From Atribacteraceae bacterium (GTDB taxonomy: Bacteria > Atribacterota > Atribacteria > Atribacterales > Atribacteraceae), in the NCBI GenBank assembly GCA_035477455.1, contig DATIKP010000078.1, positions 1 through 11,850 of the forward strand: 11,850 bases of DNA, in the 5' to 3' direction. Below, piece by piece: positions 101 through 11,801 of the stretch. Under the pieces are notes generated by a model. That model worked only from the letters and a program-made list of their open reading frames with translations, made no database searches and was not told where the DNA came from. The position numbers and the translations under genes are program-made. Within the stretch, counting starts at the first letter, position 1. Every line of letters starts with the position of its first letter.

Positions 101-460
101 TCAGTCCCCGGATTCACTTTCCTGGACGAGAGAGCCTGCGAGGTTCCGGTACAGATATTCCGCCAGCCCGATACCGTTGGCCCGGCTCGCCGACCTGGCA
201 ACCTCATCGACGAACATGTCTTTAAACCATCGCTCGTGCTTACTCAAAAAAGGGGATTCCGTGACCAGGACCGGCTGGATCGAACGCTTGAACATAAAAC
301 CGAGAAAGTACGATTCAAATTCACCGCAGGCTTTTTTCAATCCATCCTGAAGCGGCCCGCTTCCCTTCCTGTCGAGCACCAAAAGCGGTTCTTTGGGTAT
401 TCGATCGATTCGTAGCATGGTAAGCTCCTTCGTATTCCGGAGGGTATTATTACTCGACAA
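101..460 (-). CDS. flgJ: Flagellar rod-binding protein (FlgJ N-terminal rod-binding-domain-like, stand-alone, 119 aa)
   Basis: ORF 101..460(-). The motif ...GEFESYFLGFMFKRS... and the C-terminal ...ANGIGLAEYLYRNLAG... match the rod-binding family pattern (FEALFLqqMLKSMR ... GGLGLAdmL). It sits directly downstream of flgI with an 11-bp overlap, as in flgI-flgJ operons. No muramidase domain is present. Confidence 0.7.
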   Translation of the reverse strand: MSSNNTLRNTKELTMLRIDRIPKEPLLVLDRKGSGPLQDGLKKACGEFESYFLGFMFKRSIQPVLVTESPFLSKHERWFKDMFVDEVARSASRANGIGLAEYLYRNLAGSLVQESESGD

Positions 461-1568
461 TCAATTCCCCCTGGAGGGCGCCGGCTTTATTCAGCGCCTG
501 TAAAATAGCAATTAAATCCCGGGGACCGACCCCCAACGCATTCAAAGACATCACCAAATCGTCAATAGTCGTCGTACCCTCGATCCTGGACAGTCCCACT
601 TCTTCTTCCACGACCTCCACTTGCGTTTCCGGAACCACTACAGTTTCTCCGGGCGAAAAGGGCGGTGGCTGAGATACCAGAAAACGGGTTTGAATGGTCA
701 CGGTTAAATCCCCATGAGAGAGGGCCACCGGAAGAATCCGCACGTTCCCTCCGATGACCACCGTGCCGGTCCTCTCGTTCACCACGACCCGGGCGGGTAC
801 GTCAGGAGTAACCGGGATTTCCCCGATCAGCGCCATCAGGGACGATACCCGGTGCAGGTACTGGTCCGGTATGGTGATTTCAATCCGGTTGGCATCGAGG
901 GCTCGGGTCCGCCGACCCCCGATTTCATTGCTGATCGCCTGAGCGATCCGGGTGGCGGTGACAAAATCCGGGTTCTGTAACAACAGGGTAATCGTCCCCC
1001 GGGTCGGGTCATAAAATCTGGTGTCCACCGTTCGTTCGACAATCCCACCATTAGGAATCATGCCCACTGTCGGATGGTTACGTTGCACCTGGGCTCCGCC
1101 GCCGCCCGCGGCAAAACCACCGATGGAAAGCGGTCCTTGAGCGACCGCATAGACCTTTCCATCCACGGCTTTCAGCGGGGTCACCAGGAGGACGCCCCCC
1201 TGGAGAGTTTCGGAATCGCCCAGGGAGGAGACGCTTACATCAATGGTTTCCCCCGGCCGGATAAAGGGAGGAAGTTCGGCGGTCACGATCACCCCCGCAA
1301 CATTCCGTGACCGGATCTGATGTGGATCGACCGTGATCCCCAGTAGCTGGAGCATGTTCGCCAAGCTCTGATTGGTGAACAGACTGTTACGACTGTCCCC
1401 GGTCCCGGACAAACCCACCACCAGCCCGTACCCGATTAGCTGGTTCCCCCGTTCCCCCTCAAATCGGGTGATATCTTTGATCCGGACCGTTTCCGCGTTG
1501 GCGGTGAACGTGAGAAACAGGCTGATCACCAGAAGGAGAGAAGCTCTTCTAAGTGTATTGATCACCAT
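450..1568 (-). CDS. flgI: Flagellar P-ring protein FlgI (372 aa, N-terminal signal peptide)
   Basis: Full-length ORF. The N-terminus MVINTLRRASLLLVISLFLTFTANA is a signal peptide. It is followed by ...IKDITRFEGERGNQLIGYGLVVGLSGTGD..., and the C-terminal ...GELIVE is typical of FlgI. The ATG at 1568 has a G-rich SD just upstream (aaaggggtg). Confidence 0.93.
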   Translation of the reverse strand: MVINTLRRASLLLVISLFLTFTANAETVRIKDITRFEGERGNQLIGYGLVVGLSGTGDSRNSLFTNQSLANMLQLLGITVDPHQIRSRNVAGVIVTAELPPFIRPGETIDVSVSSLGDSETLQGGVLLVTPLKAVDGKVYAVAQGPLSIGGFAAGGGGAQVQRNHPTVGMIPNGGIVERTVDTRFYDPTRGTITLLLQNPDFVTATRIAQAISNEIGGRRTRALDANRIEITIPDQYLHRVSSLMALIGEIPVTPDVPARVVVNERTGTVVIGGNVRILPVALSHGDLTVTIQTRFLVSQPPPFSPGETVVVPETQVEVVEEEVGLSRIEGTTTIDDLVMSLNALGVGPRDLIAILQALNKAGALQGELIVE

Positions 1569-1615
1569 CGCACCCCTTTATCCTTTATCCTCTAACGGAC
1601 ACCGAACCGGTCTTC

Positions 1616-2224
1616 CTAAAAAAGGAAATCAAGAACGGATCCAAAAATGCCGTTCAATAGGCCGACCAAGCCACTGCGCTCCCTCGGCCGCAGAGTCCCA
1701 TCCAGTTTGATCACCGCATCGAGCACCTGGGTGGACAAAACCGAATTGTTCGCCGTAATGTCTCGGGGGCTGACTACCCCTTCAATGGTGAGGATTTCCC
1801 GCTGCTTGTTGAGGATCATCTCCTTGCTCCCCTTGATCCGGAGATTGCCGTTTTCCAGAACCTCGCTGACCTGGCAAGTAATCACCCCTCTCAGAGAAAA
1901 GTTCCGACTTTCCCCCCGTTGTGCCTGCCGGGAAGTCTCGCTGGATAAACCGGCAGGAGGAATGAAATCGAAGATCCCCGCTCCAGCCGCCAGGTTGATG
2001 TTGGTGCTCCGTCCCCCGCTGGATTGAGCATCACCGGAACCGGTTGTGTGCTCACTGACAATCACCATGATCGGATCCCCCGGACGCGAGGCTCTGAAAT
2101 CCGAGTAGGGATCCGCAAACCAGCCGTCATCGCTCCAAAGCGACTCCCCCCGGACCGGAAGGATCAGGCCACCGGCCAGAGTCGCACCGAGCACCAGGCT
2201 AAGTAATAACCGGTCATGTCTCAT
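1616..2224 (-). CDS. flgH: Flagellar L-ring protein FlgH (202 aa). It has no lipobox cysteine.
   Basis: Full ORF. The FlgH-like core GDPIMVIVSEHTTGSGDAQS...NLRIKGSKEMILNKQREILTIEGVVSPRDI is present. The start ATG overlaps the flgA stop (ATGA, 2221..2224). The signal peptide has no Cys; the only Cys in the protein is far downstream. Confidence 0.88.
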   Translation of the reverse strand: MRHDRLLLSLVLGATLAGGLILPVRGESLWSDDGWFADPYSDFRASRPGDPIMVIVSEHTTGSGDAQSSGGRSTNINLAAGAGIFDFIPPAGLSSETSRQAQRGESRNFSLRGVITCQVSEVLENGNLRIKGSKEMILNKQREILTIEGVVSPRDITANNSVLSTQVLDAVIKLDGTLRPRERSGLVGLLNGIFGSVLDFLF

Positions 2225-3246
2225 CGTATCTCCACCTCCACCAATCTTTCCCCAATGACTTGGGCCTGAACCCGTTTCCGGGATTCCGGATTCTCTACGA
2301 CAATGCTCTCTCCCAACGATCCGTTTCCCCGGGCACGGCCGGTGGCGGTCACGGTAACCAAGCCATTCCTGGCTACCATGGTTACCAAGTCCCCCCGCTC
2401 GATCAAGGTTTCCTTCTGAACCTTCTCCGGAGAGATTACTTCACCGGGACGCATAGCCCGTCGGACCTCAAGCCCGATGACCTCATTCAGAGAAGCGAAA
2501 CCCTGATCATTACCCGCGGACAACGCTTCCGGCAAGACCTGCACTTGGTCGGCGCCAATTACGTCACCCGGCCGGAGATGGTCTATGGTTCTGACGGTGT
2601 CCCGAAAAACCTTGAGGCCAAAGGTCACGCTTTCCCGCTGTTCGTAGCCTCCCGCTGCGCTCACGGTAAAGTGAGCGGTCCCCCGGCCCCACGGCTTAAG
2701 TCCGGAAGGAATGAAGAGTTGGAGGGTGCTCTCGGGAGGAACGGTCAGGTCCTCGGTGGCTCCCAGCGGCTGGATTTCCACCGCTTGGGCGAAGGGAAAG
2801 AGGCGTAAGAGTTCTTCTTCAATCATGGTGCTCATGGCTGACCAGGGGATAATCTCACCGGCAAAGACCACGCGAGAATACTCCGCTCCGGAAAAATGGA
2901 TAAAAGCGAGGCCGGGAATCCTTCTCGCCGCCACCCGGTCGAAGATTTCCTGGGGACGGATCATCCGGGCTTCCCCGGGAGCGGGGACATAACCCAAGTC
3001 GAGCCGGCGTAGTTCCCCCTCCCAGTAAACATCCGGATAAGAAATCTCCGCCACTTCCCCGAGAACGAGGCTCTCGGCCAGGAGCGTCACGTTCGGACGG
3101 AGAGCAACAGACAGGGTCAGGGCCCAGACCGGTCCTACCCAGCCCCCGAGAAAAAGCACAATACCGGCGAATAACCAACCCACTGCGTATTTCATCGCGC
3201 GCATCCGGTTACCGCTTGAGATTGTTCGAAATCTGGAGCATTTCAT
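2221..3246 (-). CDS. flgA: Flagellar P-ring assembly chaperone FlgA (SAF-domain C-terminus). The start is uncertain: ATG at 3246, 3204 or 3195.
   Basis: The C-terminal ...RGDLVTMVARNGLVTVTATGRARGNGSLGESIVVENPESRKRVQAQVIGERLVEVEI matches the FlgA/SAF pattern. The longest ORF overlaps flgG by 38 bp. The internal start at 3195 (MKYAVGWLFAGIVLFLGGWVGPVWA) gives a clean signal peptide and a 14-bp gap after the flgG stop. Confidence 0.85.
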   Translation of the reverse strand: MKCSRFRTISSGNRMRAMKYAVGWLFAGIVLFLGGWVGPVWALTLSVALRPNVTLLAESLVLGEVAEISYPDVYWEGELRRLDLGYVPAPGEARMIRPQEIFDRVAARRIPGLAFIHFSGAEYSRVVFAGEIIPWSAMSTMIEEELLRLFPFAQAVEIQPLGATEDLTVPPESTLQLFIPSGLKPWGRGTAHFTVSAAGGYEQRESVTFGLKVFRDTVRTIDHLRPGDVIGADQVQVLPEALSAGNDQGFASLNEVIGLEVRRAMRPGEVISPEKVQKETLIERGDLVTMVARNGLVTVTATGRARGNGSLGESIVVENPESRKRVQAQVIGERLVEVEIR

Positions 3247-3997
3247 CAGCTGTGGTTATAGCCTTGGCGTTGACTTCGTAGGCCCGCTGGGCACTGATCA
3301 TCCGCACCATCTCTTTGACTATCTGAACGTTGGACATCTCCAGAAAACCCTGTGCCAGGCTCCCAAAGCCAGCCAGGCCGGGTACCCCCATCTGTGGTTC
3401 TCCAGAGGAGGCGGTGGCCCGATAGAGGTTCCGCCCCAGGCTGGTCAGGCCGGCCGGATTAATGAAACGTACGAGTTCGATCACGCCGACTTCCTGGGGT
3501 TCGATTTCCCCGGGAATCTGGACGGACACGATCCCATCCTGCCCAACGGTTATCGATTCCGCCTCAGGGGGAACAGTAATCGGCGGTTCCAACAAAAACC
3601 CATCATTGGTCACCACCTGTCCCAGGGCGTCGAGTTTGAAAGAGCCGTCCCGGGAATAGGCGATTTCACCATCCGGCAGCAGAATCTGGAAAAAGCCGTT
3701 TCCTTCAATGACCAGATCAAGGGGGTTGCGGGTCTCATACATGTCTCCCTGAAAAAACATTTTCTGTACGGCCGCCGGGCGCGTACCCAGACCGACTTCA
3801 ATGCCTACCGGCACCTGGGTCGCTTCCGTGGTCGGAGCGCCGCTGACCCGAATGGTCTGATACATAATATCCTGAAAATCCACCCGGCTCTTTTTGAAGC
3901 CCGTTGTATTCACATTGGCGAGATTGTTGGCGATCACGTCGATATCCAGTTGTCTGGACATCATTCCGGTCGCCGCGGTCCACAAAGCCCGTATCAT
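3209..3997 (-). CDS. flgG: Flagellar basal-body distal rod protein FlgG (262 aa)
   Basis: N-terminal MIRALWTAATGMMSRQLDIDVIANNLANVNTTGFKKSRVDF and C-terminal ...VNAKAITTADEMLQISNNLKR are canonical for the rod/hook FlgG family. An SD ggggaggga lies 5 nt upstream of the ATG on the minus strand. Confidence 0.93.
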   Translation of the reverse strand: MIRALWTAATGMMSRQLDIDVIANNLANVNTTGFKKSRVDFQDIMYQTIRVSGAPTTEATQVPVGIEVGLGTRPAAVQKMFFQGDMYETRNPLDLVIEGNGFFQILLPDGEIAYSRDGSFKLDALGQVVTNDGFLLEPPITVPPEAESITVGQDGIVSVQIPGEIEPQEVGVIELVRFINPAGLTSLGRNLYRATASSGEPQMGVPGLAGFGSLAQGFLEMSNVQIVKEMVRMISAQRAYEVNAKAITTADEMLQISNNLKR

Positions 3998-4078
3998 GGA
4001 TACTCCCTCCCCCGTTCAGGCCTCCGCCGTGCGGTCCGGCCTGGTTATTCTCTCTGTCGATCGACGACGGACACTCTC

Positions 4079-4837
4079 TTAACGAAGCCGGGCGATATCG
4101 TTCACGGCCCGCTGTAAGGCCAAATCCTGGGACTGGATCGCCCGTTGCGCGGCTTCAAATTTACGCAGAGTCTCGATCATGGTCACCATAGCTTCAACAA
4201 CGTTCATATTCGAGCGTTCAAGCGAGCCCTGCACGACCCGAAAACCAACCGCCTCCCGAGGTTCAACCAGATCGTCAACCGGGAAAAAGTTATTGAGACC
4301 GCGCTTCACGAGGAGATTCCGATCGTCAAAATCGACTACCCGCAGTTGGTCGACCTCCTCATCATCGACCCGGATCCTCCCCTGGTCATCGACCAGGAAC
4401 GTTCCCCCCGGAGGAAGAACGATCTCCCCGGTTGTCCCCAATACCGGGAACCCATCCACGTTTACCAGGCGGCCATCGGTATCGAGGGCAAAATTCCCCG
4501 CCCGGGTATACCCCTCACCTTCCGGGGTGGCGACCACAAAAAACCCCCCTCCCTGCAGAGCGAAATCAAGATGATTTCCGGTAGTCTCGATCCGCCCTTG
4601 CGAAAAATCGGTCTGGTGTTCACTAATCAGCTGGGCCCCTATCGACAGACTTCCGATGGAGATCGGCGACTGCTCATCGGTAAACCGGGAGATCGCCCTT
4701 TCGTAAACCGCTTCCGCTCGCAAGAGATCCGCCTTGAACCCCGGTGTCTCGATATTTGCCAGGTTATTGGCCAGCACTCCCTGCTTGATTTCGAATACGT
4801 TCATTCCCGATGCAGCGGTATAAATTCCCCGGATCAC
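4079..4837 (-). CDS. flgF: Flagellar basal-body rod protein FlgF (FlgF/FlgG family). The start is called at GTG 4837 rather than at the ORF-track start 4933.
   Basis: From the GTG the protein begins VIRGIYTAASGMNVFEIKQGVLANNLANIETPGFKAD, the conserved FlgF N-terminus. A perfect SD AAAGGAGG lies 7 nt upstream of the GTG at 4835..4837 (minus strand). The extra 32 aa of the ORF-track model have no family resemblance. Confidence 0.85.
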   Translation of the reverse strand: MIRGIYTAASGMNVFEIKQGVLANNLANIETPGFKADLLRAEAVYERAISRFTDEQSPISIGSLSIGAQLISEHQTDFSQGRIETTGNHLDFALQGGGFFVVATPEGEGYTRAGNFALDTDGRLVNVDGFPVLGTTGEIVLPPGGTFLVDDQGRIRVDDEEVDQLRVVDFDDRNLLVKRGLNNFFPVDDLVEPREAVGFRVVQGSLERSNMNVVEAMVTMIETLRKFEAAQRAIQSQDLALQRAVNDIARLR

Positions 4838-5083
4838 TCGCTTGCCTCCTTTCTGGGTTATAACTGGACATGAAGTCAAGAATTCTCGTTCTGTTAGTCT
4901 CTGTTGGAAGGTATGGATAAATATACTTGCCAAAAATAAGAATCAAAACAGAGCCTGCCTTTTCAGAAAAACCATTACATACCATCCTCACCCTCTCCCT
5001 CCCCCCTCCTTACCACGGACTTCCCCCTGAACCAAATCTTCCATTGCCATCTCGACAAAGGGACAGGAAGAAACCGGGCGGTA

Positions 5084-5092: not shown

Positions 5093-5159
5093 AGGTGCTG
5101 CAGAATATAGGCCTGATGCCCGCTCGCTGATCGTCCCGGCCGGAAGGGAGATGAAAAAC

Positions 5160-5837
5160 ATGCAAGAAGTGAAAGAAAAAGTCATTGATCTCGAAAAGAC
5201 CTTAAATGACTTCATCCTCCATACCAACCTCGGTTTTGCCAAGGTTCAGAATGCGCTCATCGAACAACGTTGGGCTCTGGACAAACTCAAGGAAGAGATG
5301 GTGGCTTACCGGGAACATTCGGCTCAGGAGATGAAAGAATTCAAGGAAGAGATGGTGGGCTCCCGCCGGGAACTCAACAAGATGTGGGGGGACCTGGCCA
5401 ACCGCCTGGGGACCGTGGCGGAAGACATCGTGGCTCCCAACCTACCGGTGATCGCCCGGCGGTATTTCGGCTGTGTCGGAGAACCGCTGACTCTGTATGT
5501 GCGCTCCTTCCGGTTCAAACGGAAAGACCGGTCCCAGCAACGGGAGTTCGATGTAATCGCCGAGTACGAAGAAATCGTGCTCTTCAACGAAACCAAGACC
5601 ACGTCCCGGCAAAGCTATATCGATGACTTTCTCGCCTTTCTCCCCCAACTCCCGGACTACTGGCCGGAGTTCACGGGAAAAAAGATCATCCCCATCTATG
5701 CCGCCCTGTATATCCCGGAAAACCAGGTGGCCTACGCCACCCAGCGGGGTCTTTACGTTTTGGCCCTGCGTGGAGAAACCATGGATCTCCTCAACTACCA
5801 TGCGGTCAAACCGGTCGAAGAACCACTGAGCGACTGA
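5160..5837 (+). CDS. Hypothetical protein with an N-terminal coiled-coil and a C-terminal PD-(D/E)XK-like nuclease fold. It resembles the DUF3782-type family. An alternative start is ATG 5151.
   Basis: Residues 1-75 are heptad-rich (KEKVIDLEKTLNDF...LDKLKEEMVAYREH...FKEEMVGSRRELNKMWG). Nucleotides tcaaggaagagatggtgg are duplicated at 5287..5304 and 5341..5358. The C-terminal part has ...REFDVIAEYEEIVLFNETKTT..., a D-x(12)-E-x-K arrangement. The KMWGDLANRLG...V pattern is what I remember of the Thermus/archaeal DUF3782 paralogs. The GGGAG SD is spaced 9 nt from ATG 5160. Confidence 0.65.
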   Translation: MQEVKEKVIDLEKTLNDFILHTNLGFAKVQNALIEQRWALDKLKEEMVAYREHSAQEMKEFKEEMVGSRRELNKMWGDLANRLGTVAEDIVAPNLPVIARRYFGCVGEPLTLYVRSFRFKRKDRSQQREFDVIAEYEEIVLFNETKTTSRQSYIDDFLAFLPQLPDYWPEFTGKKIIPIYAALYIPENQVAYATQRGLYVLALRGETMDLLNYHAVKPVEEPLSD

Positions 5838-6293
5838 GCGATCCTTTCGTTTATCCCACCCGCAACGTGACCGGGCGGGGTCCTGCCACTGGAACAACTT
5901 CCAAAAGAAGGGGGTCAACCGGATATAACCGATTTTTTGCATGATCCTTCCTCTATCCATCGCTTCCCACCTTCTTCGCCTGCGGCGAAGATTTCTGCCA
6001 GTGCCGCCCGGTACCGGGGGCACATAGGGACCGTTCTTCTGTTCCAGAGGGACGTGGTCGTTTTTCCGGTAGGGCGGGCGGCGGGCCTAAGGAGATCCCC
6101 CGCCTTTACCCTTTACCCTACGCCCAGGAAGGCCCGGCTCCAGTCCGGAACCCCATCTCCCCGGGAGAGGTGCGTAACTTCTCGCTGGCTGGTATCCTTT
6201 TCATGGGTGGATGGCCCAACTCTTTAGATTTCCCTCAAATGTACTGTAGCACAACGGCCATCCACTTTTTGTTTTTACAGGAATTGTAAGACA

Positions 6294-6349
6294 GATTTTA
6301 CTGCAAAAACTCATTTCACCGAGGCCCCGTTGCCATCAGCAACGCCTCA
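6294..6349 (-). repeat. Copy B of the 56-bp inverted repeat; see copy A at 1..56
   Basis: Manual reverse-complement alignment gives 54/56 identity. It lies at the junction between GC-rich (left) and AT-rich (right) DNA. Confidence 0.8.
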
Positions 6350-6401
6350 TCTGGCATTTTCTTGCACGCATCAATGACCACGTCCGGTTGCAGTGCTGCT
6401 G

Positions 6402-6428
6402 AAAAGGCCATCCTTGGCCTTTTTACTT
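6402..6428. terminator. Possible bidirectional intrinsic terminator: aaaaGGCCA-tcct-TGGCCtttt followed by tac
   Basis: A 9-bp perfect stem (core GGCCA/TGGCC) with a 4-nt loop. Both strands have T-runs after the stem. It is short, so this is a weak call. It lies downstream of the DUF3782-like gene and of repeat copy B. Confidence 0.3.
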
Positions 6429-6488
6429 CGAAAATGCGGTGATTTCGGCGGCTGATTCAGGCAGCTCAGGCCCAGGCTTCCTTCGTTC

Positions 6489-6502
6489 TTTTGCAGCAAA
6501 AT
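6489..6502 (+). repeat. Third, partial direct copy of the repeat core: TTTTGCAGCAAAAT, a 14-bp exact match to 42..55 that includes the 13-bp palindrome
   Basis: Exact 14-mer shared with 42..55. The following bases are loosely similar (aatcaa(a)gat...gatct). Confidence 0.45.
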
Positions 6503-7277
6503 TACTTATTGCAGTAGAATCAAGATATGATCTAAACGGATCAAGAGAAAAGTCTTAACAAAATATCTTTTCTATGTTATCTTTGAATTAAGTGGTAAGC
6601 TTTTGGAGTTTTTTGATGGCTACAACCACAACAAAAGGTTGAAGAAAATAGATACCTCGCCTTTACAGGCGGGAAGTGCCCGCTAGATTAAATTATAAAA
6701 CACAGCGGAATACCTAAAAGAAACCAAAGATATAGTCTTACAACGTATCGTTATCTAACAATTATAAATGAATACCATATCAATCACCGGGATTTTTGTG
6801 CGAACCGGTTGTATTATGCGGTTTTTTATGCCGTCAGTGCCGCGTTGACCAACCGGAACCAGCACTAGCGGAAAACTTTAGAATCCGGGTTGCATTTCAG
6901 CGAGAATTTGTTAAAACTAATTTATTCTCCTCTTATGGCGGAATTATACGACGCATTACTTTGTGACCGTGAAGAAGCCGATACATGGTTTATTCGGAAT
7001 TCGATCCAAAAATTTTGCAGGAGGAATCGACTCAATTTAAAGAGTTCCTTAATGTTTTTCTTTTCAAGAGTCAGTACAAAAAGAAGAGCATTCAAAAAAA
7101 ATATTTGTAAGAGGTGAATTTAAGCCTCCGGTATGTTTATAGTGGATAACGGGGAAAAGGAGAACATTGATCGCCGTTCCATGACTACTTCTCTCTTGTT
7201 GACTTGATCATTAATTTTAGGGGGCCAGTCAGATGATGGGTCAAAACTACTAGCGGGTGAGACGGTGAAGGAGCAAA

Positions 7278-10271
7278 ATGCGTAAGGGAGAGAGTTTCAG
7301 CGATATTCTCATTCAAGCCCTGCCGGTCTTCTTCGTCGCTATCGATGTCGATGGCAAGACGATGATGATGAATGAGGCGATGCGAAACGCGCTCGGCTAT
7401 ACCGTTAATGAGGTGTTAGGAAAGGATTATCTGACGAATTTCGTCCCCCAGAGTGACCGCGGATCGCTCTCCCAAATATTCGAAAAACTGGCAGGTTCGC
7501 GCGAGCCGATGGTAAACGAGAATCGTGTGCTGACCAGGGACGGCCGAGAACTTCTCGTCGAATGGCATGGCCGGCCGATCTTCACCGAAGAAGGCGAATA
7601 CGACTTCTTCTACGGGATAGGGATCGACATCACCGAACGGAAGCGGAACCAGAGGAAGATCGCGCACCTTAACCTTGCACTGCGCGCCATCAGTAACGTC
7701 AACCAGTTCATCGTCACCGAGAAGGAGCGCGATCGACTGGTACAGGGTGTCTGCGACAGGCTCAGCGAGGCGCACGGCTATCATACCGCCTGGATCGGTC
7801 TACTCAATGAAGAAAAAGGCCTTATTACGGTAGGACAGTCCCCCTCAAGCCAGGAGTCCATAGCGCCGACCGCCCATCTGCTGCGCGGTCGGTTGCCGAT
7901 CTGCGCCCAGAAGGCACTGGCGCAACCTGGAGTCCAGGTAAGCGCAGAGCCACATGCAGAGTGTGCTGGCTGTTCTCTGTCCGGCACGCATCGTGGTCGG
8001 GGAGTGATGGCCATCCGGTTGGAACATGCGGGAAAGGTCTACGGAATGCTCACTGCGTCCATCCCCGCCGATTTCATTTTCGATAAGGAAGAGTACGAAC
8101 TATTCGCTGAAGTCGCGCTGGACATCGCGTTTGCCCTGAGCAACATCGAGCTGGAAGCTAAGCGCCAGCAGGCTGAGGAAGCCCTCACCCGCAAGGTGCA
8201 AGAGCTGGATGCCCTTAACGCAGCCTCGCAGGTGGTGAACGCCTCTCTCGATCTGGATCAGGTGTTGGGAAAGATCGTGTCGCTGGCGAAAGAGGCGGTG
8301 GGCGCCGATTACACCAGCATCCTGCTGGTCGATGAAAAAAGCGGCACGGTGCGTAGCTTTGAGAATTTTCCAGATGTACCGTCAATCGAGGATCGCGCTC
8401 AGGAGCATGGCCTTACCCGTCTGGTCATGGGCACAGGACAGATGGTGATCGTCGATGAGATCGGTGAGGACGGTACGATTGTCCCGGAACTGGGTGCCGG
8501 GGTGCCGCGCCTGGTCAATCCGCATATGGTGGGGACAAATATCAAGTCGGTAGCCTATCTGCCGCTAACCGGCAAGGCCGGTTCGATTGGAGTCCTCCAC
8601 CTGCGCAACCTGCGGCCGCAAGCATTTCGTGGTCAAGAAACGCTGCTGACCACCTTTGCCAATCAGGCGGCTATTGCCGTAGAGAACGCACGGCTGTACG
8701 AGACGGTCTCCCGGGAACTCACCGAGCGCAAGCGAGCGGAGGAGGCGTTGCGGAAGAGCGAAAGACGTCTTCGGACAATGAACAGGGTGCTTGCGAAGCT
8801 ATCGCGAAGTATGAAGATAAAAAACGGCGATCCGGGCGCCTTCCTGAAGGAGATTACCGAGGTTGCGGCCCGCACGCTCGAGGTTGAACGGGCCAGCATA
8901 TGGTTATACGATGAAAAAGGTATAAAGATTCAGTGCCTGGACCAGTATGAACTGGGTGCCGGAAGACATGCCCAGGGCTTCGAGCTGGTTCAGGCAGACT
9001 ATCCCGCTTACTTTCGGGCCTTGGAAGAGGAGCGCGCTATCGTGGCCGACAATGTACTCACCGACCCCCGAACCAGAGAACTTTCGGAGTCTTACCTTTT
9101 TCCTCACGGTATTACCTCCATACTCGATGCCCCGCTTCGGTTGGGCGGCCGAACGGTAGGGGTCATCGCTCATGAACATGTCGGGCCCGCTCGCCGGTGG
9201 ACGCCGGATGAGCAGAATTTCGCCGGATCGCTGGCGGATTTCGTCTCGCTGGCCATGGAAGCGCAGGAGCGCTGGCAAGCGGAGGAAGCGCTGGCGGAGT
9301 CGCAGTGGAAGATAGAGAACCTGAACAAGATAACCCGCCGCTTGGCGGTTTGCGCAACGGAAGATGAAGCCTATCGATTGACTATGGAGGCGGCGGAACG
9401 AATCCTGGGGTTCTTGCTCTGCTTCCTGGATATCGTGGAAGGAGACCGGATGGTGGTGAAAGCGACCTCATCGGAATTGCCTCCCGGGACGGCCGTGGAG
9501 AGGTCTCTGGCGGAGGATGAACTGGCGGCCAGGACCTACCATACCGGTAAAACGATTGTCTTTGGTAGTCCGGATGAGGTTCCCGAAGCCAGGCCGGCAA
9601 GGAAGGATTTCCGCTCGGGGATCTGCGCGCCGATTGGCGATATCGGGGTTTTTCAGGTCGTTGCCACGGATGTCGGTGCCTTTACCGAAGATGATGTACA
9701 CCGGCTTGAGCTTCTGCTCGGACAAACCGCCGAAGCGATCAAGCGGATTCGTCTGCAGAACGAACTGAGGGAACAGGCCATCCGCGATCCGTTGACCGGG
9801 GTCTACAACCGCCGCTACTTCACCCAGACAATCGAGCAGGAAGTCTCCCGCGCTGTGCGGCATAAGCGGCTGATCGCCTTCCTGATGATCGACGTCAACC
9901 GGTTTAAGGAGATAAACGATCGCTTCGGCCATCAGACCGGTGATCGCGTTCTGCAAGCGGTGGGAAGACTTCTTGCTCAGCAGGTGCGCGAGGAAGACAT
10001 CGTGGTCCGCTACGGCGGTGATGAATTCCTGATTGTTCTGCCCGAGACTGATGGCGGAGAGGTAGACACTGTAAAAAAGCGGATCGGTACAGCGATTGCC
10101 CGGATTAATGAAACGAGCAAGTTGATCGACTTTCCGGTTACCCTGTCGCTTGGTTGTGCTTACTGGAATCCGGGTGGCTCGGAATCGATCGAGGAAGTTC
10201 TGGCCTGGGCGGACCAGCGGATGTATGGGGAGAAACGGAAACAGGGTTCAGGCCATAGGTCAAAACCATGA
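7278..10271 (+). CDS. Multidomain diguanylate cyclase: PAS, Cys-containing GAF-like domain, three GAF domains and GGDEF (997 aa)
   Basis: SD GAAGGAG lies 4-5 nt before the ATG. The N-terminal PAS region covers about aa 8-125. A GAF-like domain of about aa 140-290 carries C159, C209 and the CAGC motif (C229/C232, nt 7962..7973). Classical GAF cores lie at about aa 310-480, 510-670 and 690-820, separated by coiled-coil linkers. The C-terminal GGDEF domain starts near aa 836 (RDPLTGVYNRRYF). The motif R-Y-G-G-D-E-F is at nt 10008..10028, and the I-site RxxD (REED) is at nt 9987..9998. Confidence 0.93.
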   Translation: MRKGESFSDILIQALPVFFVAIDVDGKTMMMNEAMRNALGYTVNEVLGKDYLTNFVPQSDRGSLSQIFEKLAGSREPMVNENRVLTRDGRELLVEWHGRPIFTEEGEYDFFYGIGIDITERKRNQRKIAHLNLALRAISNVNQFIVTEKERDRLVQGVCDRLSEAHGYHTAWIGLLNEEKGLITVGQSPSSQESIAPTAHLLRGRLPICAQKALAQPGVQVSAEPHAECAGCSLSGTHRGRGVMAIRLEHAGKVYGMLTASIPADFIFDKEEYELFAEVALDIAFALSNIELEAKRQQAEEALTRKVQELDALNAASQVVNASLDLDQVLGKIVSLAKEAVGADYTSILLVDEKSGTVRSFENFPDVPSIEDRAQEHGLTRLVMGTGQMVIVDEIGEDGTIVPELGAGVPRLVNPHMVGTNIKSVAYLPLTGKAGSIGVLHLRNLRPQAFRGQETLLTTFANQAAIAVENARLYETVSRELTERKRAEEALRKSERRLRTMNRVLAKLSRSMKIKNGDPGAFLKEITEVAARTLEVERASIWLYDEKGIKIQCLDQYELGAGRHAQGFELVQADYPAYFRALEEERAIVADNVLTDPRTRELSESYLFPHGITSILDAPLRLGGRTVGVIAHEHVGPARRWTPDEQNFAGSLADFVSLAMEAQERWQAEEALAESQWKIENLNKITRRLAVCATEDEAYRLTMEAAERILGFLLCFLDIVEGDRMVVKATSSELPPGTAVERSLAEDELAARTYHTGKTIVFGSPDEVPEARPARKDFRSGICAPIGDIGVFQVVATDVGAFTEDDVHRLELLLGQTAEAIKRIRLQNELREQAIRDPLTGVYNRRYFTQTIEQEVSRAVRHKRLIAFLMIDVNRFKEINDRFGHQTGDRVLQAVGRLLAQQVREEDIVVRYGGDEFLIVLPETDGGEVDTVKKRIGTAIARINETSKLIDFPVTLSLGCAYWNPGGSESIEEVLAWADQRMYGEKRKQGSGHRSKP

Positions 10272-10393
10272 GCGCTATTCTCATAAAAGTCCTGTCGGTA
10301 CCTTCGTCGCCGATCATGTCGATGGCAAGATGATAACGAGCTTACAGGCGCTTCGGCTGGCGCAGGCCAATAGGCGAGTGCACCAGCCATTAT

Positions 10394-10596: not shown

Positions 10597-11616
10597 CTAT
10601 GAATACAAAGTACCACTGTTGACAATCGGCTGGACGTCCCGATTTCCGCAGAGGACCACGAGTAGATTACTGACCATTGCCGCCTTGCGTTCTTCGTCGA
10701 GCTTTACGATGCCGTTCTCACTCAGTTTGGTCAGTGCCATTTCCACCATACCCACCGCGCCTTCCACGATCAACTGCCGGGCATCGACTATGGCTGAAGC
10801 CTGCTGTCTTTGGAGCATGGCGGCGGCGATTTCCGGTGCGTAGGAAAGATGGGTAATGCGGGCCTCCATAACTTCCAGTCCGGCCATCTCCACTTTTTCC
10901 TGAATTTCTACCCGGAGTTTTTCCGCTACCTCCTGACTGCTGCCGCGTAAAGACATTTCACTGTCTTGGTCAGGTGTGTCGTAGGGATAGTTCCGAACTA
11001 TGTTACGCAGCGCGGAGTCACACTGTATGGAAAGAAACTCCTTGAAATTGTCGACATTAAATACCGCCTTGGCTGTGTTAACTACTTTCCAGATTACAAC
11101 CACCCCTATAATGATCGGGTTGCCCAGTTTGTCGTTTATTTTTTGCTGGTCATTGTTTAGCGTAATGGCTTTCAGCGAGATGACCTTACTCGGTGCGGAC
11201 AGGCGCTGAGCCTTGTCCAGTCCGGCCGACAGAATAGCGGTAGCAATGCCAGTCGTGGAAGCGGCCGGATTCAGGGCGCTGACAAAGGGATTGACAAAGA
11301 AAAACCCTTCGCGCTTAAGCGATCCGTAGTATTTTCCAAAAAGGGTCAAGACCAGCGCCTCATTAGGACGCAGTACTTTCAACCCGGCAAAGATGATGGA
11401 TCCGACAAATAGATAAGCAAGCCCTGCAACGATCAAAATGGTGCCAAGTGCGTTATCCCCGCCGGCTTCAAATCTCATAATCCCTCTAACCATTGCCGCG
11501 ACTGCGGCTCCCATGAGGATTATATTGAGGAGCAAAATGGGCATGCCGGCCATGGCTGGCGGGCGGATTTCCTCGTGATGCACCAGGCCTTCACGTACTA
11601 TGGCTTTTTCAGACAT
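10597..11616 (-). CDS. SPFH / band-7 (stomatin-prohibitin-flotillin-HflKC) domain membrane protein, about 339 aa. The start is called at ATG 11616; the ORF-track start 11622 is TTG.
   Basis: Two N-terminal hydrophobic helices ([38 protein letters not shown]) are followed by [30 protein letters not shown]... and a long SPFH-like core. Helical C-terminal segments follow ([26 protein letters not shown]...). The SD AGGAGA lies 9 nt upstream of ATG 11616. Confidence 0.85.
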
Positions 11617-11801
11617 AATCAATCATCTCCTTACAATATGTATTTGATATTATAATAATATTATTTATATAGTATGATGGAGCCACATAATTGTCAAGTG
11701 TTTATTGCACAGGATGTAATTGCTGCGTACTCCGGAGCAAATCGCCCGGTGTTCCGGCCGAAGCCGGCCGCCTCCGGGTTTATGAGCAGCGTACGCTATC
11801 C

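Follow-up and report, generated by a model that had tools for sequence, protein, structure and literature searches.

Background

What fills the 1,440 bp between two genes of the same orientation in an Atribacteraceae contig, and does this DNA serve the gene that follows it? The stretch analysed here (the window) is the complete 11,850-bp contig DATIKP010000078.1 of a third-party-assembled metagenome-assembled genome (MAG). The interval in question, positions 5838-7277, separates a gene for a DUF8196 protein from a diguanylate-cyclase gene. An initial annotation of this DNA had described it as a gene-free region, GC-rich on the left and AT-rich on the right, and as a natural home for small RNAs, for a riboswitch-like leader or for regulatory DNA bound by a nucleoid protein, with the scar of a degraded mobile element as a further possibility. 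Based on our analysis, we consider it highly probable that the interval is mostly a mosaic of decaying accessory DNA that includes a dead HEPN gene and a miniature inverted-repeat transposable element (MITE), and not a dedicated regulatory leader. The last of the earlier suggestions was essentially correct, the scar being that of a decayed toxin-antitoxin module together with a MITE.

Indeed the interval is free of genes in the usual sense. A codon-usage log-odds model trained on nine genes of the contig gives at most 0.09 bit per codon in any frame of 5851-7275, against 0.18-0.46 for those nine real genes, and there is no intact open reading frame (ORF) with native coding statistics in 5838-7277. 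Six-frame scans of the interval with Pfam and NCBIfam are empty, and blastn of the interval against plasmids and phages returns no match.

A decayed HEPN gene

The companion claim, that no ORF here is protein-like and that the 75-codon ORF is an artefact of composition, has to be given up. This ORF (6890-7117) and its neighbours hold genuine coding remnants of a HEPN-domain gene of the PF05168 / UPF0332 type, which lies on the forward strand at 6722-7110 and carries three frameshifts, one in-frame TAG and no start codon. The blocks typical of HEPN proteins, DFCANRLYYAVFYAVSAAL, RVAFQREFVKTNL, ELYDALLCDREEAD and FDPKILQEESTQFKEFLNVF, are dispersed over two of the three forward frames. When three fragments are stitched into one reading, it matches the Pfam HEPN family PF05168 with 24 bits (cut-off 22, E 4.7e-5); in the unstitched single frames HEPN stays below the Pfam reporting level. 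Searched in 5.8 billion proteins, the stitched reading finds HEPN proteins only, of 99-139 amino acids, and the best matches are 134-amino-acid HEPN proteins at 48-52% identity (E 2e-23).

Since manual stitching may introduce a bias, intact homologues were also compared with the raw window by tblastn, which removes it. Residues 22-59 of the homologue fall on 6758-6866 in frame 2, closing at the in-frame TAG at 6867-6869; residues 64-79 fall on 6883-6930 (frame 1), residues 83-97 on 6938-6982 (frame 2) and residues 98-134 on 6985-7086 (frame 1). The four fragments are collinear, with tblastn E values of 2e-15 and 9e-11. The relationship is visible in nucleotides as well: tblastx and blastn match the HEPN genes of the homologue loci L030-L032, and the remnant is about 78% identical over 50 nt to the genes of L030 and L031.

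The remnant resembles the HEPN half of known MNT-HEPN modules in that it aligns with nearly all of the 134-amino-acid HEPN protein and retains the conserved blocks DFCxNRLYYAVFYAVSA, REFVKTG, LYDALLxDREEADY and FDP. It differs from them in its three frameshifts, its stop, its missing start and its lack of a detectable MNT gene. Among solved structures the closest relatives of the family are the HEPN proteins 9xbd and 9xbc and the UPF0332 protein AF0298 (2hsb), and P0001 matches these PDB chains at E 4e-9 to 2e-6. The block DREEADY is common to the remnant and the intact homologues, with the R present and the H absent at the canonical Rx4-6H spacing, and this subfamily may not use the classical Rx4-6H motif. 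PADLOC, run on the stitched HEPN reading, the DUF8196 protein and two intact HEPN homologues, reports weak HEPN-type matches for one homologue only.

It could be objected that the HEPN gene is intact and that its frameshifts are errors of metagenome assembly. The contig does come from a third-party MAG assembly, but four independent lesions fall within about 330 bp, the start codon and the partner gene are missing in addition, and nine neighbouring genes, one of them an ORF of 997 codons, read without interruption in the same assembly. In our opinion such an explanation deserves extremely little credit. No open frame of about 130 codons with a start runs through without a break, and the expected start position has no ATG, GTG or TTG. 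Given these lesions and the absence of a detectable MNT partner, the copy as it reads in the window is predicted to be incapable of working as a toxin or defence gene.

The missing partner deserves a comment of its own. At all three homologue loci examined, a gene of the NTP_transf_2 (MNT) family, encoding 90-114 amino acids, lies immediately upstream of HEPN. The corresponding position in the window, 6528-6721, is occupied by AT-rich DNA (about 36% GC) with no recognisable remnant, and this is presumably the MNT region degraded past recognition.

Base composition and origin of the AT-rich island

The contrast between a GC-rich left part and an AT-rich right part is borne out by the GC content of the segments, which is 59.3% at 5838-6225, 38.2% at 6226-6293, 48.9% at 6294-6522 (the repeat), 35.9% at 6523-6689, 36.1% at 6690-7110 and 44.9% at 7111-7277. 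The placement of the switch needs correction. It had been put exactly at a repeat called copy B, at about 6240; in fact the GC content falls at about 6226, which is 68 bp ahead of the repeat, and copy B begins at 6294. Likewise, of the roughly 1 kb of AT-rich DNA that had been described, 6226-6293 and 6523-7110 do have about 36% GC, but the repeat itself has 48.9% and forms an island of intermediate composition within the AT-rich stretch.

Without the MITE the island has 36.3% GC, while the rest of the contig has 54-56% and the host base composition is about 55%; the HEPN homologue loci have 31-40%. Because of these values, we infer a horizontal origin: the island fits acquisition from a low-GC donor followed by decay. 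The AT-rich DNA is the HEPN island, and the foreign pseudogene, whose homologue loci are likewise low in GC, accounts for its low GC content with no need to appeal to regulation. The proposal that the stretch is regulatory DNA bound by a nucleoid protein finds no support. As for the HEPN gene, its decay is an ordinary case of toxin-antitoxin erosion.

A MITE within the island

The repeat copy B noticed earlier is the left end of a longer unit of 228 bp at 6294-6521 (forward strand, 48.9% GC), which is complete. Its left terminal inverted repeat, GATTTTACTGCAAAAACTCATTT at 6294-6316, pairs with the right one, AAATTACTTATTGCAGTAGAATC at 6499-6521, over 23 nt at 83%, both being given on the forward strand. 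The inner motif at 6295-6308 also pairs with 6489-6502 (14 nt, 93%), so that the right end has the terminal motif twice. On both sides the unit is flanked by a 6-bp target-site duplication, AAGACA at 6288-6293 and AAGATA at 6522-6527.

A second copy in the window, copy A, occupies positions 1-56 on the reverse strand, that is, inverted with respect to copy B, and is truncated by the contig start. Its 56 nt are 96% identical to 6294-6349 (nhmmer E 1.1e-12), and its inner edge, at position 56, is sharp and lies 45 nt past the end of the flgJ-like gene. It is probably copy A that caused the assembly to break at the contig start. Two unrelated JGI contigs, which we call L038 and L039, contain three more copies with identities of 82-87%. 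Copy B matches L038 6893-7122 over its full length (230 bp, 82.6% identity, E 1.6e-62), and it is 85-87% identical to L038 4985-5266 and L039 9923-10205. The flanks are unrelated throughout, and every copy is intergenic and sits shortly past the 3' end of a gene.

All four complete copies have direct repeats of 6 bp at their flanks (AAGACA/AAGATA, ATTATT/ACTATT, AAAGCT/AAAACT and AATAAA/AATAAA); random flanking 6-mers match at five or more of six positions with a probability of about 0.005 per copy. The ends of the MITE read GATTYTRCTGCA, and an end motif GATTYTRCTGMAR was found at five of the eight ends of four complete copies, namely at both ends of each L038 copy and at one end of the L039 copy, the window copy being outside that search. 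The plus strand of the element folds into a rod-like structure of -85.3 kcal/mol, compared with -59.1 +/- 4.0 for shuffled sequences (z = -6.58), and the minus strand gives z = -4.48. A consensus fold of the four copies retains the rod, with four pairs changed on both sides in a compensatory manner. In tblastx the six frames are equally conserved and the stops are aligned, which makes the element non-coding.

Copy length is 228 bp in the window and 282-283 bp in two copies with a central palindrome: L038 4985-5266 and L039 9923-10205 contain an extra near-perfect palindrome of about 53 bp, GGGACACATCGC...GCGATGTGTCCC, which is either a nested insertion or the marker of a subfamily. Since copies 82-87% identical occur on contigs of differing composition (42-44% GC for L038 and L039, 54% for the window), it seems that the MITE has passed between quite different genomes, which suggests a recent horizontal spread.

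Being shorter than about 600 bp and non-coding, with inverted repeats, flanking duplications and dispersed copies, the 228-bp unit has the sequence hallmarks of a MITE, and we classify it as one. It may be compared with the Correia elements of Neisseria, the RUP elements of Streptococcus pneumoniae and the ERIC/IRU elements of enterobacteria. Like these it is small and non-coding with terminal inverted repeats and a short target duplication, its copies are scattered and intergenic, and it shows extensive self-complementarity and a terminator-like hairpin. Unlike them it is unrelated in sequence to any of the three, is found in an Atribacteraceae MAG and two metagenome contigs of 42-44% GC, has its terminal motif doubled at one end and has a core resembling a described RNA motif. 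Its family also has a duplication of 6 bp, whereas Correia elements use TA.

Given its strongly palindromic architecture, the repeat could alternatively be thought of as a REPIN or REP-type element mobilised by RAYT, or as a palindrome-associated derivative of IS200/IS605, in either case depending on Y1 transposases. Indeed a 263-amino-acid Y1_Tnp gene (PF01797, IS200-like or RAYT-like) lies at L038 3076-3867, 1.1 kb from one copy, and REPINs and RAYT-associated REP elements are likewise palindromic, intergenic and multicopy, with a Y1 transposase gene near one locus in our case. To our knowledge, however, elements mobilised by Y1 transposases (IS200/IS605, REPINs) have neither terminal inverted repeats nor target-site duplications, while clear inverted repeats and 6-bp duplications are present in four of four copies here. 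The window element is also about twice the size of a typical REPIN. Further, no copies of the element flank the Y1 gene of L038, and no such gene occurs in the window or in L039. We regard a Y1-mobilised origin as highly improbable.

Another alternative arises from the possibility of reading both copies as the end of an ORF: the repeat would then be a duplicated gene 3' end that reads '...EALLMATGPR*' in both copies, on the plus strand at positions 1-33 and in the minus-strand ORF 6316-6411. A phmmer search with the 46-codon open stretch does return one predicted protein of 82 amino acids at 68% identity, and a 22-mer of the repeat matches an NrdJ-like ORF containing 'ALLMATG'. But the similarity to the predicted protein P0265 runs straight through stops of the window (GPR*NEFLQ*N against WLRRNELLQQN), and the six frames are equally conserved, stops included. 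Because the similarity crosses stops and all frames are equal, the homology is at the level of DNA, P0265 and P0266 are spurious ORF calls, and a duplicated gene end is barely credible as an account of the repeat. The NrdJ-like match was the only one in a metagenome scan with the repeat 22-mer (L037 2412-2433, in a high-GC ORF, 'LGALLMATGHAYDS'). We rejected it as a coincidence: 22 nt are exact and there is no similarity beyond them, which points to chance or to a coincidence at codon level.

The DDE_Tnp_1 gene of L039 was considered as the source of the MITE's transposase and rejected, as no matching inverted repeat lies upstream of it. A scan of viral contigs with the element core gave no match.

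The core of the element and the TwoAYGGAY motif

The core of copy B, 6364-6426 on the reverse strand, is a double hairpin with GGA loops: AAAAGGCC-AAGGA-UGGCCUUUU, an AG linker and a second hairpin with a CCGGAC loop. The first of the two (6402-6423) also resembles a bidirectional intrinsic terminator. The core hairpin is preserved by a compensatory change from AUGCC/GGCAU to AGGCC/GGCCU, and in the consensus fold of the four copies the two hairpins sit inside a long imperfect closing stem, with about 36 predicted pairs.

Such an architecture recalls the TwoAYGGAY RNA motif (RF01731), with which the element has in common two adjacent hairpins, (A/C)NGGA(Y) loops, an AG linker and an unusually long closing stem. 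The P1 stem of TwoAYGGAY is "often very large (e.g., 24 base pairs)" (Weinberg et al. 2010, PMC2864571). Against this likeness stand the scores, which are 19.0 bits for the window copy, 27.3 for L038a and 35.8 for L038b, none of them reaching the gathering score of 43; the match of L038b spans the full model, with E 0.0022 in a 2.3-kb search and 0.029 in 30 kb. The loops match AYGGAY partly. In the window they are AAGGAU and CCGGAC, neither of which is AYGGAY, and of the L038 loops ACGGAC fits and CAGGAC does not. The taxa known to have the motif are Clostridia, gamma-proteobacteria and human gut, not Atribacterota, and as published it is not described as a transposon with flanking duplications. 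On the other hand TwoAYGGAY, like the window element, is multicopy within one genome. The Rfam seed (the supplementary alignment of Weinberg 2010) contains at least five sequences from Psychromonas ingrahamii NC_008709, alike for more than 100 nt past the motif. Because seed copies of one genome are alike beyond the motif, the published TwoAYGGAY motif has itself the look of a piece of some interspersed repeat.

It is fair to ask whether we are dealing primarily with a functional RNA structure of the TwoAYGGAY type, which happens to exist in several copies, a view that is compatible with its being a MITE. In this case the minus-strand hairpins with GGA loops would bind CsrA, as a decoy or a target, or the central hairpin would serve as a bidirectional terminator. 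The three copies tested all give sub-threshold RF01731 matches with the same architecture, the hairpins are kept by compensatory changes, and the copies all lie past gene 3' ends. The CsrA core determined by systematic evolution of ligands by exponential enrichment (SELEX) is reportedly CARGGAUG, and the first loop of the window copy, CAAGGAUG, fits it. In Atribacterota relatives, moreover, fliW-csrA closes the same flagellar operon. TwoAYGGAY itself has been predicted to bind CsrA (PMC4333381), though this is no more than a prediction. The scores also remain under the gathering value of 43, with only 19 bits for the window copy, and a literal AYGGAY is found in one of two L038 loops and in neither window loop. 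Further, the orientation of the copies towards their neighbours is mixed, and at both window copies the flanking genes are encoded opposite to the GGA strand. Finally, the flanking duplications and inverted repeats show spread by transposition, for which an RNA function is unnecessary. Taken as the primary nature of the element, an RNA function seems unlikely to us.

We would mention one more speculative idea, to which we attach little probability. The element might represent a MITE family, undescribed so far and spreading horizontally, that carries a TwoAYGGAY-type double hairpin as its cargo.

A regulatory leader of the cyclase gene?

The main alternative for the interval as a whole is that it serves the PAS-GAF-GGDEF gene as a long cis-regulatory leader, either riboswitch-like or bound by an H-NS-like protein, or that it is a home for small RNAs. 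This is not an unreasonable thought. The interval is directly upstream of the cyclase gene and in the same orientation, and xenogeneic silencers typically target AT-rich DNA. In addition, 7229-7277 was duplicated along with the 5' end of the gene at 10248-10362, so this piece belongs to the gene unit. However, the structural and family evidence does not go in this direction. With a permissive threshold of E <= 1, Rfam finds no family in 6522-7277. Over the window it finds no relevant family at threshold, and within the interval there is only the sub-threshold 19-bit match inside the repeat; on related loci the above-threshold matches are two unrelated tRNAs only. The region around the cyclase start (7087-7300, 214 nt) folds no better than shuffled sequences (z +0.9), the fold of the entire 5838-6240 is equally unremarkable (z = -0.89), and promoter-like and terminator-like sites in the interval show no excess over shuffled expectation.

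The small motifs that had been put forward in favour of regulation are real as letters, every one of them lying where the initial annotation had placed it or a few bases away. As notable features the hairpins do not stand, being either folds at chance level or parts of the HEPN remnant. The fold of 6076-6125 has z = -0.40 against shuffled sequences, and the GGCGGG/CCCGCC stem said to hide a Shine-Dalgarno-like site there is missing from its minimum-free-energy structure. The fold of 6650-6690 has z = -0.87. The stem of 6800-6862 reaches z = -2.7 and sits within the HEPN coding remnant (DFCANRLYYAVFYAVSAALTNRN).

Two further facts weigh against a leader: the pseudogene and the transposon make up 43% of the interval, and Atribacterota relatives with the same flagellar operon are without such an arrangement. 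The initial annotation had itself named a frameshifted pseudogene in a TBLASTX check as the observation that would speak against regulation, and for 6722-7110 (27% of the interval) this is precisely what was found. A leader is, in our opinion, very unlikely, and genes for small RNAs or a riboswitch-like leader of the cyclase are unsupported. If the MITE is transcribed, it could still act as a module resembling a small RNA.

Points that weigh against a patchwork of decaying DNA

Several observations count against our own interpretation, that the interval consists of a dead HEPN gene and a MITE amid decaying DNA. The GC-rich part, 5838-6225, makes up 27% of the interval, is without assignment and is unusually long for a spacer. 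With three MNT queries, tblastn and Smith-Waterman alignment with shuffles gave no trace of an MNT gene above noise, whether or not the MITE was first excised in silico; it is the gene order of the homologues which would indicate a formerly complete toxin-antitoxin module. The mobility of the MITE is likewise deduced only from its inverted repeats, flanking duplications and scattered copies. Only five copies on three contigs are known, three of the four flanking duplications contain one mismatch, and no autonomous transposon with matching ends was found around the window, L038 and L039 copies or in one viral scan. Lastly, a scan of the genome collection with FlgF returned relatives at 40% identity or less only, and close kin were absent.

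Remaining parts of the interval and neighbouring loci

The GC-rich spacer downstream of the DUF8196 gene (5838-6225, 388 bp) has 59.3% GC, which is native composition. It shows no coding signal, no six-frame match to Pfam or NCBIfam, no notable fold (z = -0.89) and no similarity to the fetched loci, plasmids or phages. To its right, 6226-6293 (38% GC) is the left edge of the AT-rich island, with the MITE standing between it and the remainder; a 10-bp inverted repeat here (6207-6216 / 6256-6265) is followed by a T-run and has a fold z of -1.7. At the other end, 7111-7277 directly precedes the PAS-GAF-GGDEF gene on the forward strand and contains a good Shine-Dalgarno site, AAGGAG, at 7268-7273.

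Positions 7229-7340 have a diverged duplicate at 10248-10362. This segment, directly past the cyclase stop, is a diverged and frameshifted copy of the cyclase 5' untranslated region and first 28 or so codons; it reads 'VKTMSAILIKVLSVP' / 'FVADHVDGKMITSLQALRLA' where the cyclase has 'MRKGESFSDILIQALPVFFVAIDVDGKTMMMNEAMRNA'. A tandem paralogue was probably deleted here, leaving this stump. The cyclase gene itself (HSV31354.1; forward strand, 7278-10271) encodes a PAS-4xGAF-GGDEF protein and is followed by an SPFH gene on the reverse strand (10597-11622).

The DUF8196/PF26618 gene (forward strand, 5151-5837) has its stop at 5837. Its protein has an N-terminal coiled coil and a C-terminal half with a D...E-x-K-like motif (FDVIAE...VLFNETK), which suggests a PD-(D/E)XK nuclease. 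The protein has over 440 homologues, Thioploca, Jettenia and Kuenenia having several per genome, and these lie among toxin-antitoxin and insertion-sequence genes; the contexts of the homologues show no synteny and no conserved downstream DNA. A Logan contig of the same organism breaks within the 5' end of this gene. An antisense ORF of 193 codons (5442-6023, reverse strand) overlaps the 3' half of the gene and extends into the GC-rich spacer. Within it, GAGGAAGG precedes an ATG at 5944. The ORF is without coding signal and is probably an artefact driven by GC content.

The left part of the window belongs to a flagellar operon on the reverse strand, with the flgJ-like rod-binding gene at 101-460 and flgI, flgH, flgA, flgG and flgF at 450-4933. 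The operon, with its P-ring and L-ring genes flgI and flgH, is found both in this contig and in two Atribacterota MAGs (L040 and L041), where it runs on as flgJ-DZR-flgM-flgN-flgK-flgL-fliW-csrA. After flgJ comes an overlapping DZR gene in the relatives and MITE copy A in the window. Atribacterota relatives with 55% FlgF identity have the flagellar operon in common with this contig and nothing upstream of flgF, and a search of these same relatives for the MITE found no copies.

Possible history of the locus

In what we consider the most likely course of events, a low-GC MNT-HEPN module would have been acquired horizontally between the DUF8196 and diguanylate-cyclase genes, and the HEPN toxin gene, which now has three frameshifts, a stop and no start, would then have been inactivated. 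Once the toxin was lost, nothing would have kept the MNT antitoxin gene from decaying or being deleted beyond recognition. Into the AT-rich remnant the non-autonomous 228-bp MITE, whose body is almost wholly self-complementary, would subsequently have inserted, duplicating 6 bp of its target, and a second copy would have come to lie after flgJ at what is now the contig start.

Implications

For annotation, the lesson is that this conspicuous, seemingly "empty" AT-rich leader of 1.4 kb is mostly a dead toxin gene plus a MITE, and that it makes a poor target for riboswitch mining; the local drop in GC content is probably the footprint of horizontal acquisition. Mobile elements of Atribacterota are poorly catalogued, hence the MITE is of modest wider interest, and it probably fragments assemblies of these MAGs. 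Its core ties the orphan TwoAYGGAY RNA motif of 2010 to a transposon architecture, a link that can be tested.

If the little-favoured idea of a MITE family with a TwoAYGGAY-type cargo were true, the TwoAYGGAY "RNA motif", with its long P1 and its many copies per genome, would in general be a transposon core. If, in addition, the strand with the GGA loops is transcribed, each insertion would seed a CsrA site or a bidirectional terminator beside host genes. One such insertion would be copy A in the flagellar operon, which in relatives ends with fliW-csrA, and transposition of the MITE would in this way rewire post-transcriptional control.

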